The position numbers were made by a program, and so were the translations under genes. A model generated the notes under the pieces. The model was given only the letters and a program-made list of their open reading frames with translations, did not search any database and was not told the origin of the DNA. A stretch of 64,000 nucleotides of DNA. It comes from Candidatus Rokuibacteriota bacterium (GTDB lineage Bacteria > Methylomirabilota > Methylomirabilia > Rokubacteriales > CSP1-6). Each line of letters begins with the position of its first letter. The stretch's first letter is position 1. The stretch lies in contig QHRW01000115.1 in the NCBI GenBank assembly GCA_003220265.1, positions 1,391 through 65,390 of the forward strand, given 5' to 3'. Shown here piece by piece: positions 2,729 to 62,825 of the stretch.

Positions 2729-3253
2729 ATGAAGCTGCAAGGCAAGCGGATCGCGATCCTCGCGGAGAACATGTACCAGGAGATGGAGCTGTGGGTTCCG
2801 TACTACCGCTTCAAGGAAGAGGGCGCCGAGGTGAAGGTGGTGGGCGCCGGCGGGGCCAAGTCCTACACGTCCAAGCATGGCTATCCGGTCAGCGTGGATG
2901 TCCAGGCCGACCAGGTGAAGGCCGTGGAGTTCGACGCGGTCATCGTCCCCGGCGGCTACGCGCCCGACATGATGCGGCGCCACGACGCCATGGTGGGCCT
3001 CGTGCGCGAGGCGGCGCAGCAGGGCAAGGTCGTGGCCGCCATCTGCCACGCCGGCTGGATGCTGGTCTCGGCCGGTATCCTGAAGGGCCGCAAGGCCACC
3101 TCGTTCTTCTCGATCAAGGACGACCTGAAGGCGGCCGGCGCCGACTGGCAGGACGCCGAGGTCGTCGTCGACGGCAACCTCATCACGTCGCGCAAGCCCG
3201 ACGATCTGCCCGCCTTCTGCCGGGCGATCATCACCTCGCTCTCCAAGTCATAA
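2729..3253 (+). CDS. DJ-1/PfpI family protein (type 1 glutamine amidotransferase-like)
   Basis: MKLQGKRIAILAE...VIVPGGYAP...AAICHAGW (nucleophile-elbow Cys-His). GAGGGAGG lies upstream of ATG 2729. Confidence 0.85.
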   Translation: MKLQGKRIAILAENMYQEMELWVPYYRFKEEGAEVKVVGAGGAKSYTSKHGYPVSVDVQADQVKAVEFDAVIVPGGYAPDMMRRHDAMVGLVREAAQQGKVVAAICHAGWMLVSAGILKGRKATSFFSIKDDLKAAGADWQDAEVVVDGNLITSRKPDDLPAFCRAIITSLSKS

Positions 3254-3269: not shown

Positions 3270-3300
3270 GAAGGGGGAACCCTCCCAGGGTTCCCCCTTC
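3270..3300. repeat. 31-nt perfect GC-rich palindrome (14-bp stem, 3-nt loop), a possible terminator or REP-like element
   Basis: GAAGGGGGAACCCT-CCC-AGGGTTCCCCCTTC, paired position by position by hand. It sits 17 nt after the pfpI-like stop and 15 nt before the next ATG, with no T-tract. Confidence 0.6.
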
Positions 3301-11488: not shown

Positions 11489-11841
11489 GGACGATGCGAG
11501 CTTTCAGCACCTTCAGGATTTTTGTGGCGATGCTCCTGGTCGTGGCATTTCTGCCGGCGTGCCAGTCGATGAGCGGCCGGAGCGCCGGTCGGGTCATCGA
11601 TGACAAGGCGATCTCGGCTCAGGTCAAGACGAAGCTGGCCGCGGACAAGGCCTCGAGCCTCACGCGCATCGGCGTGACGACCGTCAACGGTGTCGTGCAC
11701 CTCGACGGCGTCGTCGACAACGTCGACGACAGGGCCCGCGCGGTGGACATCGCGCGGCGGGTGGCCGGTGCCAACAAGGTCGTGGACAACATCCAGGTCA
11801 ACCCGACACCGGCGGCGTCGCCGTCGGGGTCAACGAAGTAG
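11485..11841 (+). CDS. BON-domain lipoprotein (OsmY-like)
   Basis: Lipobox FLPAC, then DDKAISAQVKTKLAAD...VTTVNGVVHLDGVVDNVDDRARAVDIARRVAGANKVVDNIQV. Confidence 0.8.
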   Translation: MRTMRAFSTFRIFVAMLLVVAFLPACQSMSGRSAGRVIDDKAISAQVKTKLAADKASSLTRIGVTTVNGVVHLDGVVDNVDDRARAVDIARRVAGANKVVDNIQVNPTPAASPSGSTK

Positions 11842-14800
11842 CCGCGGGCCGGGATAGCCGTCCCAGGTCAGTCGCGCGCCGTCGGCGCTGAAGCCGGCCT
11901 CGATGAAGGCGGCGAACGCCTCGGTCTCGCGAATGGGACGGCTATCCCAGCCAACGATCTCCAGCCGGCGCACGGGCCGCAGCGTCAGCGGCCGCTCCAT
12001 CAGCGTCTGCAGTGCGCGCACCGTGCCCGGCAGATCCACCGGCTCGAATGCCGCCAGCGGCGTCAGCTCACGCCCGTAATTTTCGGCGACGACCACCGGT
12101 CGCCCCGCGCGCACGATCAGCCAGGCGTGCGGCAGCCGCGCCACGCCGAGCCGGCCACCGTCCCGCCGTGACAGCGGCCACGCGCGGCCCCAGAGGTTGG
12201 CCGGATCCGCGAGGTTGACGAGGACGTGTGGCTCAGCACGACGCGGACTTGCAGCCAGGTTGGTCAGGGAATCCTCGAGGGCGTATTGCTCGCCGGAGAG
12301 CCCCTCGACGAAGTAGCCGCGGACGACTTCGCCGCCGTATTCCATCCGCAGCAGCGTGTGGCGCAGGGTCGCCCAGTCGCCCCGCGCCAGCTCGCGGGTC
12401 ACCACTGCGTAGCGCGCCAGCAAGAGCTGAGCGCGGGCTTCTTCGCGTTCCTCGGGCGAGAGCCGCTCCTCTTCGGCGAGCGCACTCCACCGTCCGATCG
12501 GCGGCAGGTGAGCGAGCAAACCCCGGGCCTGACCGCGACGCGGCCGCCGCCGGCGCGCTGATCCGGTCTCCGCGCCACGCGGTGAGGCAGCGGCGGCCAC
12601 GATCGCGCTGAACGTGTCCGGCGTCGCCAGGCCGGCGCGGAACAGATCCCAGAGCGCCGCCTCGACCTGCGGCGGCTCGAGGCCGGCGCCGCGGGCGAGA
12701 TCGCGCGCGAACGAGGCACCGCGGAGCTGCAGGTGCAACAGGACGTTCTTGGTTTTCGGATCGAGCTCCGGCCGCTCGCCGGTCTCCCGCAGCCAGCCCA
12801 CGTTGTCGCGCAGGGCGACGCCGACGCGCCCCGCGGCGGGCTCGAAGACCGTCCACACGATCTCGCCGGCCAGCCCGAGGCGATCGAGCCACTCGCGCTG
12901 GTAGTCCTCCACGCGGGCGGACAGCAGGTCCTGCTCCCAGACCTTGACGGGAAAGTCCTCGCCCTGCAGCAGCTCGAGGGCGGCCAGTACGCCGGGCGGG
13001 CCGACCAGGCGGTGCTCGGGGTGCAGGTGATGACGGCGCAGCAGGAAGGCCGCGAACTGCTCGGCCGTGGCGACCGGGCGGGGCACGCGTCGCGCGTGCA
13101 CCTGGCGCCGCTGGATCTCGTCGAGCACTGCGATGTGGAGATACCTCTCCAGCTTGAGGGGGGCGCTGCCCCCCTCAAGCTCCTCCCGCATGAAGTCGCC
13201 ACGGCGCACGACCCCCCGGGCGACCAGCCGCTCCAGCGCCGGCTGGATATCGTCCGGGGTGAGCCCGTAGCGTTCGGCGAGTGACTGAGCGGTGACGGGG
13301 CCGCGGGTGCGGAGCGCGCGCAGGGCGATGCGCTCGAGCCCGGCCTCCGTGGCCAGCCCCGCGTAGAGCGGCGCGTCGGTGGCGGGAATCCAGGCGTGCC
13401 GCGCGCCGAACTCGACGAGCGTGATCCGGCGCTCGGCGAGCAGCGCGGCGATCAGCGCGTCGGCGTCGCTCACCACGCGCTCGCCGATCTCGGCGCGGGT
13501 GAGGTCGCCCAGGTCGTCGAGAATCGCGGCCAGCTCGTTGGCGTCGCGCGCGCGGCGCTCGGGCGTCGTCCGTTGCAGCTCGGCCTCGACGGCGGCGATG
13601 ATCTCCGGACGCAGCGGGCCGGGCGCCACGCTCCAGTTCTTGCGCATGGCCACCGTGTCGGAGCGCCGCTCCTCGGCGTGGCCGGTGTCGAGATACGCCC
13701 AGTCCCAGGCCAGCAGCAGCGGGTAGACGAACGGCGAGGGCACCGGCGTGTCCACGTGCCGCGTCCACATCTCGCCGTCGTGCAGCCGCTCCAGGACGCG
13801 CTTGAGCCGCGGGACGTCGTAGGCGTCGTTGAAGCACTCGCGCAGCGTCTCGGCGACCACGGGGAAATCGGGCTGGCCCTTGACGGCCTCCAGCAGCGCA
13901 TCCGCCTTCAGCCGCTGCAGGTAGGCGGGCGTGCGTTGCCCGCGCGTCATGCGGGGGATGAAGAGCGCGCGCACGGCGGCGTGGCGGAAGCGCGTGCCGA
14001 ACAACGGCGAGCCGATCAGCGCCTCGCCGAGCAGATTGTCGAGCTCCTCGGGCGCCACCAGCGTCACCAGGCGCTCGGGCGCCGGCGGCACCTGGCCCGG
14101 CGCGAACGACAGGAGGATGCCGTCGTCCACGTGGCTAACTTCGGCCTGCAGGCCGAAGCGGCGGCGCACCTGCTCGCGCAGCGCCATGCCCCAGGCGCCG
14201 TTGATGCGCATGCCGAAGACCGAGTGGATCATGGCGTGGCGGCCGCCCATCTCGTCGGAGAACGACTCGACGACGATGCCCTGGTCGTCCGCCACGCCCT
14301 GCAGCACCTCGCCGGCCTTCACGAGCCACGCGTGCATCGCGGCGGTGGCCCGCGCGTCCAGGCCGCACTCGCGGGCGGCCCAGGCGGCGAAGTCGGGGGC
14401 ATCCAGGCGCTCGGCCGCGTCGCGGCGCAGCCGGCCGACGGCGACGCCGAGGTCCCACGAGCGCGAGGGGTGCTCGCCCTTCCAGAACGGGATGGTCGGC
14501 GACATGCCCTGGGCGTCCTCTACCAGCACGCGGTCGGCGCGGACCTTGGCGATCTTCCACGCGTGCGAGCCCAGCAGGAACACGTCGCCCGGCAGGCTCT
14601 CGGTGACGAACTCCTCGTCGAGCGTGCCCACCTTGAGGTCCGTCTCGGCCACGTAGACGTCGTAGAGCCCGGCGTCGGGGATGGTGCCGCCCGCCGTCAG
14701 CGCCAGGAACCGGCTGCCGCGCCGCGCGTGCAGGCGATCGTTCACGCGGTCCCACAGGATCCGCGGCGCCACGCCTTTCACCTCGGCCGGCAGCGGCTCC

Positions 14801-16245
14801 GCCTCCGAGCGCACGACCTCGCGGAAGGTCTCGCGCGCCAGCGTGCGGTAGGGGAACGCGCTCACGAACCGCTCGTAGAGCGCATCCACGCCGATCGACT
14901 CGGCGGCCACGGCCGCGACGACCTGCTGGGCCAGCACGTCCAGCGGCGCCTCCGGCATCGCGATGCGATCGAGGCGATGCTCGCGGATCGTGCGCACGAC
15001 GGCCGCGGCCTCCAGCAGCTCCTCGCCTTTCGTGACGAGAATGCGCCCCTTCGAGGTGCGCGACAGCAGATGGCCGGCGCGCCCCACGCGCTGCAGCGCG
15101 GCCGCCACGTTGCGCGGCGACTGCACCTGGATCACGAGGTCGATCGCGCCCACGTCGATGCCGAGCTCGAGCGACGAGGTGGCGACGAGCGCCCGCAGCT
15201 CGCCCGCCTTGAGCCGGTTCTCGGCCTCCAGCCGCGCGCGCCGCGAGAGTGACCCATGATGGGCCGCCACTTTGTTGCCGAAGGGGGCTACGCCCCCCTC
15301 GCTCTCCCCTTTGTTGGCGAAGGGGGCTACGCCCCCCTCGCTCTCCCCCGGTCCATCGGGGATCCGATCGTTGAGGTCCCGCGCCAGCCGCTCGGCCGCC
15401 CGCCGGCTCTGCGCGAACACCAGCGTCGTGCGGTGGGCCAGCACCAGCTCGGCGATCTGCTGGAGCGCCGCGTCCCACACGGTGTCGCTGGTCGCCGTGA
15501 GGAAGTCGTCCACCGGCGAGACGACCTGCACGTCGAGGTCGCGCGAGAAGCCGGCGTCCACAACCAACGGTTCGCGCCCGGTGGCGCCCGTCAGAAAGGC
15601 CAGCGCATCCTCGATGGGGCTCACCGTCGCCGAGCAGCCGATGCGCTGCGGGCGCGCGCCCGGCTCACGCTCGGCCACCAGCGCCTGCAGCCGCTCCAGC
15701 GAGAGCGCGAGGTGAGAGCCGCGCTTGCTGCCCATGAGCGCGTGGACCTCGTCCACGATGACGAAGCGGGCCTGGGCCAGCGCCGGCCGGAAGCCCGCGC
15801 TCGTGAGCAGGATGTAGAGCGACTCGGGCGTGGTGATCAGCACGTGAGGCGGCCGTCGGGTCATCGCCTGGCGCGCGGCCGCCAGCGTGTCGCCGGTGCG
15901 GACGGCCACGCGGACCTCGGGGACGTCGAGGCCGTCGGCCTCGGCCGCGGCGCGGATGCCGGCCAGTGGCTCGCGCAGGTTCTTCTCGATGTCGTTGTTC
16001 AGCGCGCGCAGCGGCGAGACGTAGACCACGTAGACGCGGTCCTCGAGACGTCCCTCGAGCCCCAGCCGGTGCAGGTGGTCCAGCGCCCACAGAAACGACG
16101 CCAGCGTCTTGCCGGACCCCGTCGGCGCCACGATGAGCGTGTCGCGGCCGGAGGCGATCGCGTCCCAGCCCTCACGCTGCGGGCGGGTGGCCTCGGTGAA
16201 CGTCGCCTCGAACCAGCGACGGACGAAGGGGAGGAACTGCGGCAT
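11830..16245 (-). CDS. lhr: ATP-dependent helicase Lhr (large helicase-related, DEAD/DEAH superfamily 2)
   Basis: 1471 aa: APTGSGKT (Walker A), VIVDEVH, CSATV, HHGSLSRRAR, TSSLELGIDVG, QRVGRAGH, plus a long Lhr-type C-terminal domain. Confidence 0.9.
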   Translation of the reverse strand: MPQFLPFVRRWFEATFTEATRPQREGWDAIASGRDTLIVAPTGSGKTLASFLWALDHLHRLGLEGRLEDRVYVVYVSPLRALNNDIEKNLREPLAGIRAAAEADGLDVPEVRVAVRTGDTLAAARQAMTRRPPHVLITTPESLYILLTSAGFRPALAQARFVIVDEVHALMGSKRGSHLALSLERLQALVAEREPGARPQRIGCSATVSPIEDALAFLTGATGREPLVVDAGFSRDLDVQVVSPVDDFLTATSDTVWDAALQQIAELVLAHRTTLVFAQSRRAAERLARDLNDRIPDGPGESEGGVAPFANKGESEGGVAPFGNKVAAHHGSLSRRARLEAENRLKAGELRALVATSSLELGIDVGAIDLVIQVQSPRNVAAALQRVGRAGHLLSRTSKGRILVTKGEELLEAAAVVRTIREHRLDRIAMPEAPLDVLAQQVVAAVAAESIGVDALYERFVSAFPYRTLARETFREVVRSEAEPLPAEVKGVAPRILWDRVNDRLHARRGSRFLALTAGGTIPDAGLYDVYVAETDLKVGTLDEEFVTESLPGDVFLLGSHAWKIAKVRADRVLVEDAQGMSPTIPFWKGEHPSRSWDLGVAVGRLRRDAAERLDAPDFAAWAARECGLDARATAAMHAWLVKAGEVLQGVADDQGIVVESFSDEMGGRHAMIHSVFGMRINGAWGMALREQVRRRFGLQAEVSHVDDGILLSFAPGQVPPAPERLVTLVAPEELDNLLGEALIGSPLFGTRFRHAAVRALFIPRMTRGQRTPAYLQRLKADALLEAVKGQPDFPVVAETLRECFNDAYDVPRLKRVLERLHDGEMWTRHVDTPVPSPFVYPLLLAWDWAYLDTGHAEERRSDTVAMRKNWSVAPGPLRPEIIAAVEAELQRTTPERRARDANELAAILDDLGDLTRAEIGERVVSDADALIAALLAERRITLVEFGARHAWIPATDAPLYAGLATEAGLERIALRALRTRGPVTAQSLAERYGLTPDDIQPALERLVARGVVRRGDFMREELEGGSAPLKLERYLHIAVLDEIQRRQVHARRVPRPVATAEQFAAFLLRRHHLHPEHRLVGPPGVLAALELLQGEDFPVKVWEQDLLSARVEDYQREWLDRLGLAGEIVWTVFEPAAGRVGVALRDNVGWLRETGERPELDPKTKNVLLHLQLRGASFARDLARGAGLEPPQVEAALWDLFRAGLATPDTFSAIVAAAASPRGAETGSARRRRPRRGQARGLLAHLPPIGRWSALAEEERLSPEEREEARAQLLLARYAVVTRELARGDWATLRHTLLRMEYGGEVVRGYFVEGLSGEQYALEDSLTNLAASPRRAEPHVLVNLADPANLWGRAWPLSRRDGGRLGVARLPHAWLIVRAGRPVVVAENYGRELTPLAAFEPVDLPGTVRALQTLMERPLTLRPVRRLEIVGWDSRPIRETEAFAAFIEAGFSADGARLTWDGYPGPRLLR
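13151..13181. repeat. 31-nt palindrome (14-bp stem, 3-nt loop) embedded in frame in lhr
   Basis: AGCTTGAGGGGGGC-GCT-GCCCCCCTCAAGCT, paired by hand. On the gene strand it encodes ELEGGSAPLKL. Confidence 0.75.
15271..15348. repeat. 2 x 39-nt in-frame tandem duplication inside lhr, each copy carrying a GC hairpin
   Basis: 15271-15309 and 15310-15348 differ at 1 of 39 positions. The core is CGAAGGGGGC-TAC-GCCCCCCTCG. They encode GESEGGVAPFANK and GESEGGVAPFGNK. Confidence 0.85.
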
Positions 16246-28741: not shown

Positions 28742-29494
28742 CTAGAGCGCGAGAAGCTCGTGCCGCAGCGCCTGGTCGTCGCGCAGGCGGGCGGCGGGGC
28801 CGCTGAAGCGAATCGAGCCCTTCTCCAGCACGTAGACGCGGTCGGCCAGGGCCAGCGAGAACTCGGTGTTCTGCTCGGCGAGCAGAATGGTCAGTCCCTC
28901 GTGCTTGAGCCGCGCGATCTGCTCGCGCAGGTGATCGACGACGAGCGGCGCCAGGCCTTCGGAGGGCTCGTCGAGGAGCAGCAGCTCGGGGTTGCCCATG
29001 AGCGTCCGCGCGATGGTCAGCATCTGCTGCTCGCCACCCGAGAGATAGCCGCCGTTGCGCCCGGTCAGCTCGCGCAGCTTGGGGAAGAGATCGAAGACTC
29101 GCTCCACGGTCCATTGGAGCGGGTGCCGGGAGTCCGGATCGCTCCGAGGGTGGCCTGGTCTAGATGCGGCGTGGCTCCGTTTACTGGCGACGTCCAGGTT
29201 CTCCCAGACCGTGAGGTCGGCGAAGATGCGCCGGTCTTCGGGGACGAAGCCGATGCCGGCCTGGGCGACTCGGTACGGCGGCCAGCCGGTGATGTCGACG
29301 GACTTCCACGTGATGCGGCCCGCCTGCGGCGGCGTGAGGCCCATGATCGAGCGCATCGTCGTCGACTTGCCCACACCGTTGCGGCCGAGCAGGCACACGC
29401 ACTCGCCGGCCGCCACCTCCAGCGACACGCCGAACAGCACGCGTGAGAGCCCGTAGGCCGTGTGCACGTCGTGCGCCTCCAGGACGACACTCAT
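28742..29494 (-). CDS. livF: Branched-chain amino acid ABC transporter ATP-binding protein LivF
   Basis: MSVVLEAHDVHTAYG...GRNGVGKSTT (Walker A), LSGGEQQML, LLLLDEPSEGL. The real start is ATG 29494; the 373-aa ORF extension reads through the repeats. Confidence 0.9.
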   Translation of the reverse strand: MSVVLEAHDVHTAYGLSRVLFGVSLEVAAGECVCLLGRNGVGKSTTMRSIMGLTPPQAGRITWKSVDITGWPPYRVAQAGIGFVPEDRRIFADLTVWENLDVASKRSHAASRPGHPRSDPDSRHPLQWTVERVFDLFPKLRELTGRNGGYLSGGEQQMLTIARTLMGNPELLLLDEPSEGLAPLVVDHLREQIARLKHEGLTILLAEQNTEFSLALADRVYVLEKGSIRFSGPAARLRDDQALRHELLAL

Positions 29495-29948
29495 CTCTCG
29501 ACGTGGGGGGCCCCGACATGGCCCCCCACACCCCCCAACGCTCGGAGTGCCCCGGGGAACCCGTGGCACTCCTCGATTTCCCGCGTGCTCATCTCTCGAC
29601 GTGGGGGGGCCCCGACATGGCCCCCCACACCCCCCAACGCTCGGAGTGCCCCGGGGAGCCCGTGGCACTCCTCGAGTTCCCGCGTGCTCATCCTCTCGAC
29701 GTGGGGGGCCCCGACATGGCCCCCCACACCCCCCAACGCTCGGAGTGCCCCGGGGAACCCGTCGCACTCCTCGAGTTCCCGCGTGCTCATCTCTCGACGG
29801 GGGGCCCCGACATGGCCCCCCACCCCCGCCAACGCTCGGAGTGCCCCGGGGAACCCGTGGCACTCCTCAAGTTCCCGCGTGCTCATCTCTCGACGGGGGG
29901 CCCCGACATGGCCCAACCCGTCGTACTCCTCGATTCCCCGCGTGCTCA
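29491..29948. repeat. Tandem array 1 of the two-hairpin GC-rich repeat family (5 units: 98, 99, 99, 96, 63 nt)
   Basis: On the plus strand, units start at 29491, 29589, 29688, 29787 and 29883, each beginning TCATC(C)TCTCGACG. Hairpin 1 is at 29503-29529 and hairpin 2 at 29544-29572. Confidence 0.9.
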
Positions 29949-38327: not shown

Positions 38328-39815
<1,488 letters not shown>

Positions 39816-39830
<15 letters not shown>

Positions 39831-40110
39831 CGCGCCGCTGATCGCGGAGCGCCACGGCCTGGCCGGGGCGCTCCGAGCGCGGGGGGGCGTGGGGGGCCAT
39901 TTCGGGGCCCCCCACGACGGGCGGTGAAGCGGGTCATCGCGCCGGTGATCGCGGAGCCCCCCGGCGTGGCCGGGGCGCTCCGAGCGCCGGGGGGCATGGG
40001 GGCCATTTCGGGGCCCCCCACGACGGGCGGTGAAGCGGGTCATCGCGCCGGTGATCGAGGAGCGCCGCGGCTTGGCCGGGGCGCTCCGAGGGCCGGGGGG
40101 GCGTGGGCAT
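39816..40110. repeat. Tandem array 2 of the two-hairpin repeat family (107 + 106 nt units plus one 5'-truncated unit), in opposite orientation to arrays 1 and 3
   Basis: On the plus strand, units start with GGTGAAGCGG(C/G)TCATCGCGCC at 39816, 39923 and 40029. Hairpin 2 is at 39846-39874. Hairpin 1 is GTGGGGGGCC-ATTTCGG-GGCCCCCCAC. Confidence 0.9.
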
Positions 40111-44197: not shown

Positions 44198-45102
44198 TCG
44201 TCGGCTCGGCCAACGTGGATTTCACCGTCGCGCTGCCGCGGCTGCCACGGGCGGGCGAGACGGTCAGCGAGGGCACGCTGCTCGTCGCCCGCGGCGGCAA
44301 GGGCGCCAACCAGGCGGTGGCAGCGCGACGGCTCGGCGGCGAGGTGCGGCTGATCGCCTGCGTGGGTGACGACGCCTCCGGCCGCGAGGTGAAGACGGCG
44401 CTGGCCGGCGAGGGGATCGCCGTGGAGGCGATCGCCACGACGTCGAGCGCGGCCACCGGCACGGCGCTGATCGTGGTGGACGCCGAGGGCCGCAACCAGA
44501 TCGCCGTCGCCCCCGGCGCCAACCGCGCGCTGACGCCGGCCGACGTGGACGCGCGCGCCGCCGACTTCGCCTGGGCCGAGGTGGTCGTCTGCTCGCTCGA
44601 GGTGGAGCTGGGCTGCGCGCGGCGCGCGTTCGAGCACGCGCGCCGCCACGGCGCGCTCACGATCCTGAATCCGGCGCCGCTGCCCGACCGCGGTCTCGAC
44701 TTCCTCGATCTCGCCGACTACGTCACGCCCAACGAGAGCGAGGCCGCGCGGCTGACCAGCCTGCCCGTGCAGGACGCGGACAGCGCGGCGAAGGCCGCCG
44801 CGGCCATCCGCGCCCTCGGCGCCATGCGCGTGATCGTCACCCTCGGCGCGGCGGGCGCGCTTGCCGACGGACCCGAAGGTCGCGTGCACGCGCCGGCGCC
44901 GCGCGTCACCGCGGTGGACACCACGGGCGCCGGCGACGCGTTCAACGGCGCGCTGGCCGTGGCGCTGGCCGAGCGCCGCTCGCTGGGCGCCGCGCTCGCG
45001 TTCGCCAACACGGCGGCTGCGCTCGCCTGCACCAAGCGCGGCGCCCAGCCCTCGATGCCGGTGCGCGCGGAGGTCGAGCGGAGCCTCGCCCGCTCGTCCT
45101 GA
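44182..45102 (+). CDS. rbsK: Ribokinase
   Basis: GTG start. VPRVLIVGSANVDF...GGKGANQAVAA...PNESEA...DTTGAGDAFNGALA. Confidence 0.85.
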   Translation: MPRVLIVGSANVDFTVALPRLPRAGETVSEGTLLVARGGKGANQAVAARRLGGEVRLIACVGDDASGREVKTALAGEGIAVEAIATTSSAATGTALIVVDAEGRNQIAVAPGANRALTPADVDARAADFAWAEVVVCSLEVELGCARRAFEHARRHGALTILNPAPLPDRGLDFLDLADYVTPNESEAARLTSLPVQDADSAAKAAAAIRALGAMRVIVTLGAAGALADGPEGRVHAPAPRVTAVDTTGAGDAFNGALAVALAERRSLGAALAFANTAAALACTKRGAQPSMPVRAEVERSLARSS

Positions 45103-47090: not shown

Positions 47091-47876
47091 ATGGGATATG
47101 AAACGCTGATCGTCGAGCGCACCGGCGCGCTGGCCACCATCACCATGAACCGTCCGGAGGCGCGCAACGCGATCGATCTCGCGATGCGCCACGAGCTGCT
47201 GGCCGCGCTCGACGAGGTGGAGGCGGACGCGGCCGTGCGCGTGCTGATCCTCAGCGGCGCCGGCGAGCACTTCTGCGCGGGCGGCGACGTCAAGTCGATG
47301 CGCGCGCGGCGCTCCACCGCCGCCGAGGGCCGCGAGCGCGTGCAGATGCTCAACCGGATGGTGCTGCGCCTCGTCGACTTTCCGCGGCCGACCATCGCCA
47401 TGGTGGACGGCTTCGCCGTGGGCGCCGGCACCAACCTCGCGCTCTGCTGCGACCTCGTCGTCGCCTCCGACCGCGCGCGGTTCGGCGAGCTGTTCAACAA
47501 GATCGGCCTCGCGCCCGACGGCGGCGGCACCTGGCTCCTCTCGCGCCTCGTCGGCCTCGCCCGCGCCAAGGAGCTGATCTTCACGGGCGACGTGTTCGAC
47601 GCCGCCGAGGCGGCGCGGCTCGGCCTCGTCAACCGCGTCGTCCCGGCCGCCGAGCTGCGCGCGGTGACGCGCGCCCTGGCCGAGAAGATCGCGGCGGGCC
47701 CGCCCGGCGTCCTGCGCATGGCCAAGCACATGGTCAACCGCGCCGCCACCACCGACCTCGCCGCCGCCCTCGACCTCGAGGCCTACTCCCAGGGCCTCGC
47801 CATCGCCAGCGACGACCACCAGGAGGGCCTCGCCGCCTTCTTCGACAAGCGCCCCCCCAAGTTCACCGGCAGCTAA
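47091..47876 (+). CDS. Enoyl-CoA hydratase/isomerase family protein
   Basis: MGYETLIVERTGALATITMNRPEARNAI...FCAGGDV...VDGFAVGAG. Confidence 0.85.
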   Translation: MGYETLIVERTGALATITMNRPEARNAIDLAMRHELLAALDEVEADAAVRVLILSGAGEHFCAGGDVKSMRARRSTAAEGRERVQMLNRMVLRLVDFPRPTIAMVDGFAVGAGTNLALCCDLVVASDRARFGELFNKIGLAPDGGGTWLLSRLVGLARAKELIFTGDVFDAAEAARLGLVNRVVPAAELRAVTRALAEKIAAGPPGVLRMAKHMVNRAATTDLAAALDLEAYSQGLAIASDDHQEGLAAFFDKRPPKFTGS

Positions 47877-47927: not shown

Positions 47928-48010
47928 GGGCCGCCCCGGCTGCGCCGGGGCGGCCCGAGCGTCGGGGGGGTTGGGGCCATCTCGGGGGAACGTCCATAGG
48001 GACCCCCCAC
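47928..48010. repeat. Solo degenerate copy of the two-hairpin repeat (same orientation as array 2)
   Basis: A perfect 29-nt palindrome GGGCCGCCCCGGC-TGC-GCCGGGGCGGCCC lies at 47928-47956. It is followed by GAGCGTCGGGGGGGTTGGGGCCATCTCGGGGG...CCCCCCAC, which aligns with array 2 except for an insertion of about 13 nt in hairpin 1. Confidence 0.7.
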
Positions 48011-62492: not shown

Positions 62493-62825
62493 TCATGGGG
62501 GCCACGAAATGGCCCCCAAACCCCCCGACGTTCGAAGCGCCCCGGCGGAGCCGTGGCGCTTCTCTGGAATGGTCCAGCGTCATGGGGGCCTCGACATGGC
62601 GCCCCCAAACCCCCCGACGTTCGAAGCGCCCCGGCGGAGCCGTGGCGCTTCTCTGGAATGGTCAGCGTCATGGGGGCCTCGACATGGCGCCCCCAAACCC
62701 CCCGACGTTCGAAGCGCCCCGGCGGAGCCGTGGCGCTTCTCTGGAATGGTCAGCGTCATGGGGGCCCCGAGATGGCCGCCAAGCCCCCACACGTTCGTCG
62801 CGCCCCGGCGCTTCTCTGGAAGCTG
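62493..62825. repeat. Tandem array 3 of the two-hairpin repeat family (87, 88, 88 nt plus one degenerate unit)
   Basis: Units start with TCATGGGGGCC at 62493, 62580, 62668 and 62756. Hairpin 2 of unit 1 is at 62534-62562. The last unit has lost the hairpin-2 loop. Confidence 0.9.

Follow-up and report, generated by a model that had tools for sequence, protein, structure and literature searches.

How do two nearly identical hairpin units come to be translated inside a conserved helicase gene? The question is raised by lhr in a stretch of 64,000 nucleotides (hereafter the window; G+C content 71%) from a Candidatus Rokuibacteriota bacterium (assembly GCA_003220265.1, contig QHRW01000115.1, positions 1,391 to 65,390), where the gene hosts hairpin inserts at two places, here called site 1 and site 2. 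The site-1 units are very likely copies of a dispersed hairpin element, M, akin to the repetitive extragenic palindromic sequences (REPs), which entered lhr in frame and afterwards changed in copy number. The features on which this reading turns are the following.

11830..16245, minus strand: lhr, 1471 aa, host of both hairpin inserts (open reading frame (ORF), translation, Pfam and PDB match)
15313..15351, minus strand: M copy 1, the 5' copy in the gene, CCGGGGGAGAGCGAGGGGGGCGTAGCCCCCTTCGCCAAC, encoding the peptide PGESEGGVAPFAN
15274..15312, minus strand: M copy 2, the tandem duplicate, AAAGGGGAGAGCGAGGGGGGCGTAGCCCCCTTCGGCAAC, encoding the peptide KGESEGGVAPFGN
15319..15339, minus strand: 21-nt hairpin core of copy 1, GAGGGGGGC-GTA-GCCCCCTTC
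15280..15300, minus strand: 21-nt hairpin core of copy 2

The host ORF is a full-length Lhr helicase of Rokubacteria (Methylomirabilota). Its Pfam domains (DEAD, Helicase_C, WH_Lhr, DEAD_assoc, WH2-4_Lhr), every one above cut-off, comprise the SF2 DEAD/Helicase_C core, the winged-helix (WH) and DEAD_assoc domains and the C-terminal WH modules of an Lhr helicase, and residues 3-1385 align with Mycobacterium smegmatis Lhr (MsmLhr; PDB 7lhl, E = 2e-232). The nearest homologs, at most 90% identical, come from metagenome-assembled genomes (MAGs) of Rokubacteria/Methylomirabilota and from soil metagenomes, and a protein identical to that of the window was found on an ENA soil-metagenome scaffold.

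At site 1, Tandem Repeats Finder reports a repeat at 15270-15348 (period 39, 2.0 copies, 97% matches, score 151); set in register with the dispersed element, the two units span 15274-15351 and agree at 38 of 39 nt, the figure that an earlier note on this DNA had given. Also in line with that note, they are translated, as PGESEGGVAPFANKGESEGGVAPFGNK, and run immediately into VAAHHGSLS, which puts them just 5' of the HHGSLS motif; the codon that follows copy 2 is AAA (K), equivalent to the R/K/Q of the empty site found in other alleles. Each copy holds an 11-bp hairpin, GCGAGGGGGGC-GTA-GCCCCCTTCGC, in which one pair is G.T. The pattern GGGGGC-N3-GCCCCC occurs three times in the 64 kb, always within lhr (shuffled sequences predict 0.05), and the 21-nt form is likewise confined to lhr there (expected 0.02).

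Outside the window, in related genomes and metagenomes, from which all evidence of dispersal comes and for which the scan counts are lower bounds, the unit is widespread. The consensus of M, 34-41 nt long, begins CCGGGGGAGnnCGAGGGGGGCGTAGCCCCCTTCG and reads in full (GG)CCGGGGGAG-nn-CGAGGGGGGC-GTA-GCCCCCTTCG-nnnGA. Scanning one genome per species with the pattern GAGGGGGGC-N3-GCCCCCYTC gave at least 120 matches; among the 120 listed, 29 belong to Rokubacteria/Methylomirabilota, in addition to several MAGs with the same style of repeat, and several of the Rokubacteria matches combine the GTA loop with the asymmetric left flank of the lhr unit. An example of that flank, ccgggggagtccGAGGGGGGCGTAGCCCCCTTCg, stands on four contigs of a single MAG; among the matches listed, one MAG, H1-B1, supplies as many as four copies of M. 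The exact 21-mer was met on at least 120 soil-metagenome contigs; none of the 120 listed lies in lhr, and nearly all are flanked as GGCCGGGGGAGTCC-core-GCTTGA. Clustered by their distant flanks, the non-lhr copies with an exact core from both scans, at least 127, fall into at least 85 distinct clusters. The stretch conserved across these unrelated contexts takes in 14 nt ahead of the core and about 6 nt behind it; at 39-41 nt it equals the lhr insert in size, and copy 1 departs from the dispersed consensus at 2 positions in 34 nt, a match expected 0.00 times by chance.

This agreement decides against a local origin of site 1, by which slippage, template switching at a quasi-palindrome and tandem duplication in variable loops would have built an ordinary in-frame variable-number tandem repeat (VNTR). 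Such an origin would account for copy number that changes by whole 39-nt units, and peptides of the form GG-x-AP arise from any GGN GGC nnn GCC NCC palindrome; however, 34-35 nt of the site-1 unit match intergenic Rokubacteria copies, and the identity reaches past the palindrome into the non-palindromic left flank CCGGGGGAG. The shared flank refutes local origin for site 1, and as an account of the inserts in general we regard it as very improbable. The earlier note had likened the lhr inserts to the in-frame palindromic elements of Rickettsia (RPEs) and had proposed a search for further copies of the module; for site 1 the likeness is essentially right, because the unit recurs intergenically in at least 85 places, even if none of these lies in the window.

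Where it is intergenic, M is found in several settings. It stands within composites of about 140 nt, in which a hairpin A is followed by M and then by a hairpin C, at the tip of longer hairpins (GGTGGGGGGTGTCGGG...CGCTCCCCCCGACGTT or GGGCACGGGCACCCGG...CCGGGTGCCCGTGCCC), or 10-20 nt 5' of a Shine-Dalgarno sequence and start codon. At locus L243 one array unit, about 60-130 nt upstream of the M core, is without M (...GAGCGCTGG-GGGGTGT-GGGGGGCCATCTC), and the adjacent unit has it (...GAGCGCTGG-CCGGGGGAGTCC..GCTTGAAGAGGCT-GGGGGGCCATCTC); M is therefore a separable indel in a larger repeat. At a number of loci (L132, L135, L150, L175, L188, L225, L243 and others) the A-M-C composite lies between direct repeats whose sequences covary from one locus to the next (CGATGAG...CGATGAG, CCGGTGAG...CCGGTGAG) and include the upstream stop and the downstream start codon; they have the look of a target-site or junction duplication of 6-8 bp at operon boundaries. 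Composite copies in convergent contexts have no flanking direct repeats.

The lhr orthologs tell how the insert has behaved since. In an alignment of the window's Lhr (the query) with 120 orthologs, about 105 of the 120 have the empty site DRIPDG-RVAAHHGS, and the 13-aa module PGESEGGVAPFGR(K), present in 0-3 copies, is restricted to the closest clade (84-91% identity). P0007 has three copies, P0010 and the query have two each, P0008 has about 1.5, and P0002 (the closest module-bearing relative), P0009, P0011 and P0012 have one each; P0013, P0024, P0027 and P0030 have a decayed single copy and P0001 a remnant. A 39-nt unit in 0, 1, ~1.5, 2 or 3 copies among alleles 84-91% identical is in its behaviour an in-frame VNTR. 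Codon-level alignments give exactly 39 nt more per unit, between the G and the R/K/Q codon, and at site 2, where the loop is shorter in most orthologs, the query has a clean 33 nt more than ortholog P0005. The inserts thus keep the frame and are lineage-specific, as the earlier note had held.

In a neighbour-joining tree of Lhr, from the input of which the loops were left out, the filled alleles stand at no fewer than seven separate places, each beside sisters with an empty site, and all outgroups are empty. The 21-nt core is identical at the nucleotide level in both copies of the query and in P0002, P0007 (two of three copies), P0008 and P0010 (one of two), even to the GTA of its loop, a rare codon in lhr (4 of 122 Val codons, two of the four being in the modules). 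Judged by how often one codon is common to all five genes where E, G, V, A, P or F is conserved, the identity of all seven core codons in five lhr lineages has P ~0.002 at the background synonymous divergence. Other copies are far from pristine: about 7 substitutions in 39 nt have accumulated in P0007 and P0010 (5' copies) and in P0013, P0024 and P0030 (single copies), and the stems there are broken without compensation, so that steady purifying selection acting in lhr on either hairpin or peptide is unlikely.

These patterns bear on the view that M entered once, at the base of the clade of 84-90% identity, and that vertical descent with many precise losses did the rest. All filled alleles share the same site and frame; the sequence types, AGC...GCC AAx as in the query and P0002 (GAGAGC...TTCGCCAAx) and TCC...GGT CGN as in the other clade (GAGTCC...TTCGGTCGN), track the two main clades; and repeats flanked by hairpins are readily deleted. 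Against this, about eight or more independent precise deletions would be needed, each restoring DG-R/Q-V, and copies 0-1 changes from the consensus coexist with copies bearing about 7 changes in 39 nt at similar divergence. Intergenic look-alikes exist for both types, GGGGAGCGCGAG...TTCGCCAA (L189, L235) for that of the query and P0002 and TTCGGTCG (L143, L190) for that of P0007. We hold descent from one ancient insertion to be unlikely, and one frozen by selection would not fit; pristine and decayed copies in a patchy tree would be better explained by repeated re-insertion or gene conversion, together with gain and loss of units of the slippage type.

The identity of the core could instead reflect selection at the nucleotide level on the hairpin itself, with the peptide as a by-product; it might affect mRNA stability or pausing, bind a protein, or present repair proteins with a DNA structure to act on. 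In addition to the rare codon shared by five lineages, every allele with several copies has a pristine one in the 3'-most place, the G.T pair lets the sense strand fold better than the antisense, folding of the two-copy region yields -48.5 kcal/mol (z = -4.6), and REPs recur in repair genes of other phyla. On the other hand, the insert is absent from most orthologs, sister lineages included; the single copies of P0013, P0024, P0027, P0030 and P0001 have decayed in both stem and peptide without compensation; one M alone folds no better than composition-matched shuffles (z = -0.4); and no Rfam family was matched at the gathering threshold in the window and ten loci. A functional hairpin seems to us quite improbable.

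Metagenome assemblies are the sources of these sequences and M is a high-copy repeat, so that misassembly or faulty binning might have placed the repeat in lhr. However, the insert leaves the reading frame unbroken, more than 10 independent assemblies (JGI, ENA, NCBI) have the site filled and differ in copy number and state of decay, and P0121, a different Lhr allele from another assembly, has a two-copy array identical to that of the window, which makes an artefact unlikely to the point of being negligible.

The position of the inserts in the protein is consistent with their being tolerated, and the surface-loop placement foreseen by the earlier note is borne out at both sites. Site 1 aligns with MsmLhr residues ~302-339, and in the MsmLhr crystal structure aa 301-326 are without density, a disordered surface loop of RecA domain 2 (PMC5758891). 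An AlphaFold2 (AF2) model of residues 1-460, which is poor (mean predicted local distance difference test (pLDDT) 53) and was used for secondary-structure placement only, the disorder argument resting on the solved M. smegmatis structures, has 295-325 as coil (pLDDT ~30) between the helix 281-294 and the VAAH strand. Site 2 aligns near MsmLhr aa 1046-1052, a surface loop which, with one other, is disordered in the cryo-EM model of the C-terminal domain (PMC8053096), and in the AF2 model of 860-1130 the winged-helix module reaches a pLDDT of ~90 and the insert forms the tip of a beta-hairpin wing. M. smegmatis Lhr has its own insert of ~35 aa, rich in Gly/Ala/Pro, in the same loop as site 1 (..PNPEVGGGAPAHLMGSGQANGAPP..); the position is a recurrent insertion point across phyla.

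Site 2 is a different case.

13151..13181, minus strand: perfect palindrome of site 2 (14 bp in the stem, 3 nt in the loop); its product (E)LEGGSAPLKL lies at the WH3 wing tip
13147..13179, minus strand: 33-nt indel at site 2 with respect to ortholog P0005, CTTGAGGGGGGCAGCGCCCCCCTCAAGCTGGAG

The palindrome of 31 nt and 14 perfect pairs, encoding ELEGGSAPLKL, is as the earlier note gave it. It folds at -30.3 kcal/mol (z = -4.0), and in 1.28 Mb of Rokubacteria DNA, which contains 241 perfect hairpins with stems of at least 9 bp (62 of the 241 in coding-like frames), it is the longest perfect hairpin in a coding-like frame and, among those 62, the sole member of the G-run/C-run class. P0005 reads TTC ATG CGG GAG GAG GAA TAT in this region, and the query therefore carries a clean extra 33 nt, the placement of which is ambiguous by up to 4 nt because GGAG stands at both bounds. 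The wing loop is about six residues shorter in most orthologs. P0001 has an imperfect version with 10 of 14 pairs and one complementary difference, C-G to T-A; in P0004 the right arm is duplicated, and in P0003 there is a partial deletion.

The same note took the two lhr hairpins to be homologous to each other, which goes beyond what they share, a common layout: CGGGAGGAG-CTT-GAGGGGGGC-AGC-GCCCCCCTC at site 2 and CCGGGGGAG-TCC-GAGGGGGGC-GTA-GCCCCCTTC for M in lhr, identical at 24 of 39 positions. The leader CGGGAGGAG also occurs in P0005, which is without the hairpin, and among the matches listed no Rokubacteria intergenic copy has the loop or flanks of site 2; on these two grounds homology to M, judged from the sequences, is plausible but unproven, and the RPE-like reading, sound for site 1, is for site 2 only plausible. 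Among the matches listed, the nearest outside one agrees at 30 of 31 nt and belongs to a Rhodospirillales MAG (L060) that also repeats GGGGGAG-nnn-GAGGGGGGC-N3-GCCCCCCTC modules; the alphaproteobacterial match may be convergent. Repeats with the layout of M, GGGGGGAG-nn(n)-GAGGGGGGC-N3-GCCCCCCTC, were observed in Alphaproteobacteria (Rhodobacterales, Acetobacterales, Rhodospirillales; L010, L017, L020, L024, L046, L050, L060, L074, L080), often after AAATATCCCGGGGGGTGA or after a GGCCnTTCGGCC hairpin; common descent, transfer or convergence may lie behind them. For site 2 a local origin has more in its favour, namely the absence of a dispersed Rokubacteria counterpart among the matches listed and the perfect query palindrome set against the 10 of 14 pairs of P0001 with their complementary double change, and local perfection of a quasi-palindrome by template switching is possible. 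A reading of C-GTA-G in M as a GNA-triloop mini-hairpin was dropped, as the site-2 loop (AGC/GCT) does not fit it.

Translation of M outside lhr is a rarer matter. One of the six reading frames of M has a TAG in the loop, and by inspection of the sequences the lhr frame of the consensus ends GCT TGA, the lhr copies being variants without the TGA. Among the matches listed, exact-core copies inside a frame with coding-like G+C at third codon positions on both sides occur in lhr only, bar a doubtful case: at L143 (3560-3700) a metalloprotease-like ORF (HEVGHH) runs through M (..VPDDRGSSEGGVAPFGRRETP, in the lhr frame) into an ORF of the DinB_2 family without a stop, which may be a gene fusion mediated by M or a miscalled frame. 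At L110 (and L185) the final 12 codons and the TGA stop come from M in a HisS/HisZ-like ORF upstream of purA, ending ...PGESEGGVAPFA* at L110, and at L004 (14107-14151) an M-like hairpin with the loop TCC forms the 17-aa tail of a short-chain dehydrogenase/reductase (...SEGGSAPLATAPRA, TTTSEGGSAPLATAPRA), beyond a Pfam domain that reaches its end at residue 254 of 271. On the copies listed, M thus does not look like a frequent invader of ORFs as RPEs are, since its translation outside lhr is nearly limited to C-terminal tails. A search of representative proteins with the 33-aa two-copy segment returned two Lhr fragments only, single 13-aa copies being undetectable in this way, and a search of 5.8 billion proteins with four tandem copies of the module gave 1444 word candidates, none of which was scored, compositional filtering being the likely cause.

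Several of these results weigh against an origin of the lhr inserts from a dispersed element: the confinement of translated M outside lhr to C-terminal tails and one doubtful ORF fusion, the missing Rokubacteria counterpart of site 2 and its alphaproteobacterial match. To them must be added that no M was found in the 64-kb window outside lhr, blastn-short included, and M may be rare or extinct in the window's own genome; that the surroundings of the lhr insert showed neither a target-site duplication nor a terminal inverted repeat; and that no transposase is linked to M in the collected loci. A phmmer search of 13,738 six-frame ORFs (~2 Mb of loci) for a Y1-transposase-like ORF found no match, the queries (IS200 TnpA and the E. 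coli REP-associated tyrosine transposase (RAYT)) being approximate sequences and the search of low sensitivity. A microhomology or target-site signal at the left junction in lhr (CGATGG|CCGGGGG, compared with A-M junctions) was considered and set aside, the ~3-6 nt shared being too short. Lastly, the three mosaic arrays of the window are without M.

29490..29914, minus strand: array 1 of modules A and C, no M, ~4.4 units of 99 nt
39809..40107, plus strand: array 2 of modules A and C, no M, ~2.8 units of 106 nt
62493..62810, minus strand: array 3 of modules A and C, no M, ~3.6 units of 88 nt

In these arrays hairpin A is GCCACGG..CCGGGGCGC and hairpin C is GGGGGGCCATnTCGGGGCCCCCC, neither matching Rfam; the array hairpins, in which the earlier note saw the design of the lhr hairpins, belong to these two modules of the same mosaic repeat system and not to M. 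Array 1 starts at the ATGA stop/start overlap of the upstream gene, and each of its units ends in GAGAGATGAG (GATGAG) and therefore holds a copy of the start codon of the downstream ABC-ATPase.

With these points weighed, we still favour M as the source of the site-1 units, by the following course. In Rokubacteria M is mostly an intergenic dispersed repeat, in mosaics at gene junctions like the bacterial interspersed mosaic elements (BIMEs) of E. coli, usually at the apex of, or between, other hairpin modules. One copy would have entered lhr between the G and R codons of ...PDG|RVAAHHGS, in the single orientation and frame that reads PGESEGGVAPFG(R), as a variant without the TGA of the consensus, and it would have survived because the long disordered surface loop of RecA domain 2 accepts extra residues. 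Slipped-strand or hairpin-promoted replication errors would then have changed the copy number and caused partial deletions, point mutation would have brought decay, and the lhr copy may more than once have been put in anew, or renewed through gene conversion by M copies elsewhere in the genome. Site 2 is a second, independent, clade-specific insert of 33 nt, laid out as a G-rich leader, 3 nt and GAGGGGGGC-N3-GCCCCCCTC, that lengthens the beta-hairpin wing of WH3; more tentatively, it probably belongs to the superfamily of M as a variant that template switching has perfected or kept up. The two inserts are most likely carried along as neutral passengers.

A bolder reading, to which we give little credence, is that M is still active as a minimal element (~34-41 nt) that repeatedly re-enters or converts one codon boundary of lhr, and that such repeats favour DNA-repair and helicase genes, as with uvrA, uvrB and recB of other phyla, possibly because these loci or their products interact with single-stranded hairpin intermediates of element propagation. 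If true, Rokubacteria lhr would be a natural reporter for the transposase-independent spread of REP-like modules.

Other hairpins were observed in passing. The palindrome at 3270-3300, which the earlier note had placed with the lhr hairpins, shares with M only its GAAGGGGG/CCCCCTTC ends; it is intergenic, with a 14-bp stem (GAAGGGGGAACCC-TCC-CAGGGTTCCCCCTTC), and lies, terminator-like, 17 nt past the stop of an ORF ending at 3253. Perfect stems of 13 bp (GGGCCGCCCCGGC-TGC-GCCGGGGCGGCCC) and 11 bp are found at 47928-47956, just past an ORF ending at 47876, and at 44619-44646, within a coding-like frame. A second class of Rokubacteria hairpin, GCCCCGCGTGTTCGCGGGGGAGTCGA-GAGGGGGGCGGAGCCCCCTTC-TCCCAAAGGAGA, stands directly 5' of start codons (L023, L026, L037, L052, L094, L095) and looks like a conserved 5'-leader element; a third, TCGGAGGGGGGC-N3-GCCCCCCTCCGA, follows stop codons, usually with CCTCCCCCC after it, and is terminator-like without a T-run (L021, L029, L043, L058, L091, L093, L105, L107, L108, L121).

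Beyond lhr, the modules A, M and C make up a previously undescribed mosaic repeat system of Rokubacteria, with arrays at operon junctions, which confounds gene calling and assembly and is usable as a strain marker. The lhr case alone reveals no new mechanism; its presence/absence alleles, decay series and donor copies together document the passage from intergenic hairpin repeat to protein in an uncultured GC-rich soil phylum.

Among known systems, the closest are the REPs, short stem-loops that are mainly extragenic, near ORF ends, and often supply stop codons. The catalogue by Di Nocera, De Gregorio and Rocco (2013; PMC3733652) lists GTAG- and CGTC-tagged REPs inside ORFs of several phyla (Opitutus, Thauera, Thioalkalivibrio and Xanthomonas among others), so that the earlier note's remark that it knew of no RPE equivalent in GC-rich lineages is superseded. 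According to the same source, in-ORF REPs are strikingly over-represented among genes of replication and repair (uvrABCD, recBCD, dnaE2, ligase, helicases), in some cases occur as two inserts per ORF or as grouped copies encoding 20-30 aa, and in recB of Xanthomonas different REPs occupy about the same site in related species (PMC3733652). M resembles them as an imperfect palindrome of 11 pairs (one G.T) in a unit of 34-41 nt, about the size of REPs (some 20-40 nt), and its non-lhr exact-core copies are essentially all intergenic. It differs in that the unpaired terminal GTAG or CGTC described there (PMC3733652) is replaced by the flanks CCGGGGGAGnnC and Gnn(n)GA, its only GTAG being the loop plus the first stem base (GC-GTA-GCC), and in its asymmetric G-rich leader; nor do Rokubacteria/Methylomirabilota or lhr appear in the parts of the catalogue consulted (PMC3733652). 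Because the terminal tag is absent, and no RAYT was found in a weak search, M is filed as REP-like only, outside the GTAG and CGTC superfamilies.

RPEs (Ogata et al., 2000, Science 290:347; 2002, Genome Res 12:808) are described, in a review (PMC10969869), as AT-rich elements of ~100-150 bp that encode 30-50 aa peptides in frame in dozens of unrelated ORFs. Like them, M is palindromic, intergenic as well as in frame in a conserved gene, and translated at the protein surface in a manner compatible with function. In contrast, its unit is 39 nt (13 aa) and extremely GC-rich, falling short of the RPE length, and it is so far internal to lhr only, plus a few C-terminal tails; the sequences are unrelated.

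Translation inside a conserved enzyme is not typical of BIMEs or of the mycobacterial interspersed repetitive units (MIRUs). Set beside what is generally known of these, M is likewise a module of mosaics (A-M-C, a G6...C6 outer stem, a GGGCACGGGCACC outer stem), with composites at operon junctions over stop and start codons and tandem units of 88-106 nt, although the module sequences are unrelated to M. The intragenic MITEs (miniature transposable elements with inverted repeats; ERIC, BOX, Correia; Delihas, 2007), presented in the same review (PMC10969869) as small non-autonomous repeats that form in-frame fusions with host ORFs, share with M the fusion of a small repeat with its host ORF. Unlike MITEs, which have terminal inverted repeats, target-site duplications and more than 100 bp, M alone has none of these, and only the larger A-(M)-C composite has a MITE-like trait in the covarying flanking repeats (CGATGAG, CCGGTGAG) at a subset of loci. 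The kind of event is thus already known; the present case adds Rokubacteria and Lhr to the range of intragenic REP-like insertion, and lhr joins the repair and replication genes with translated REPs.

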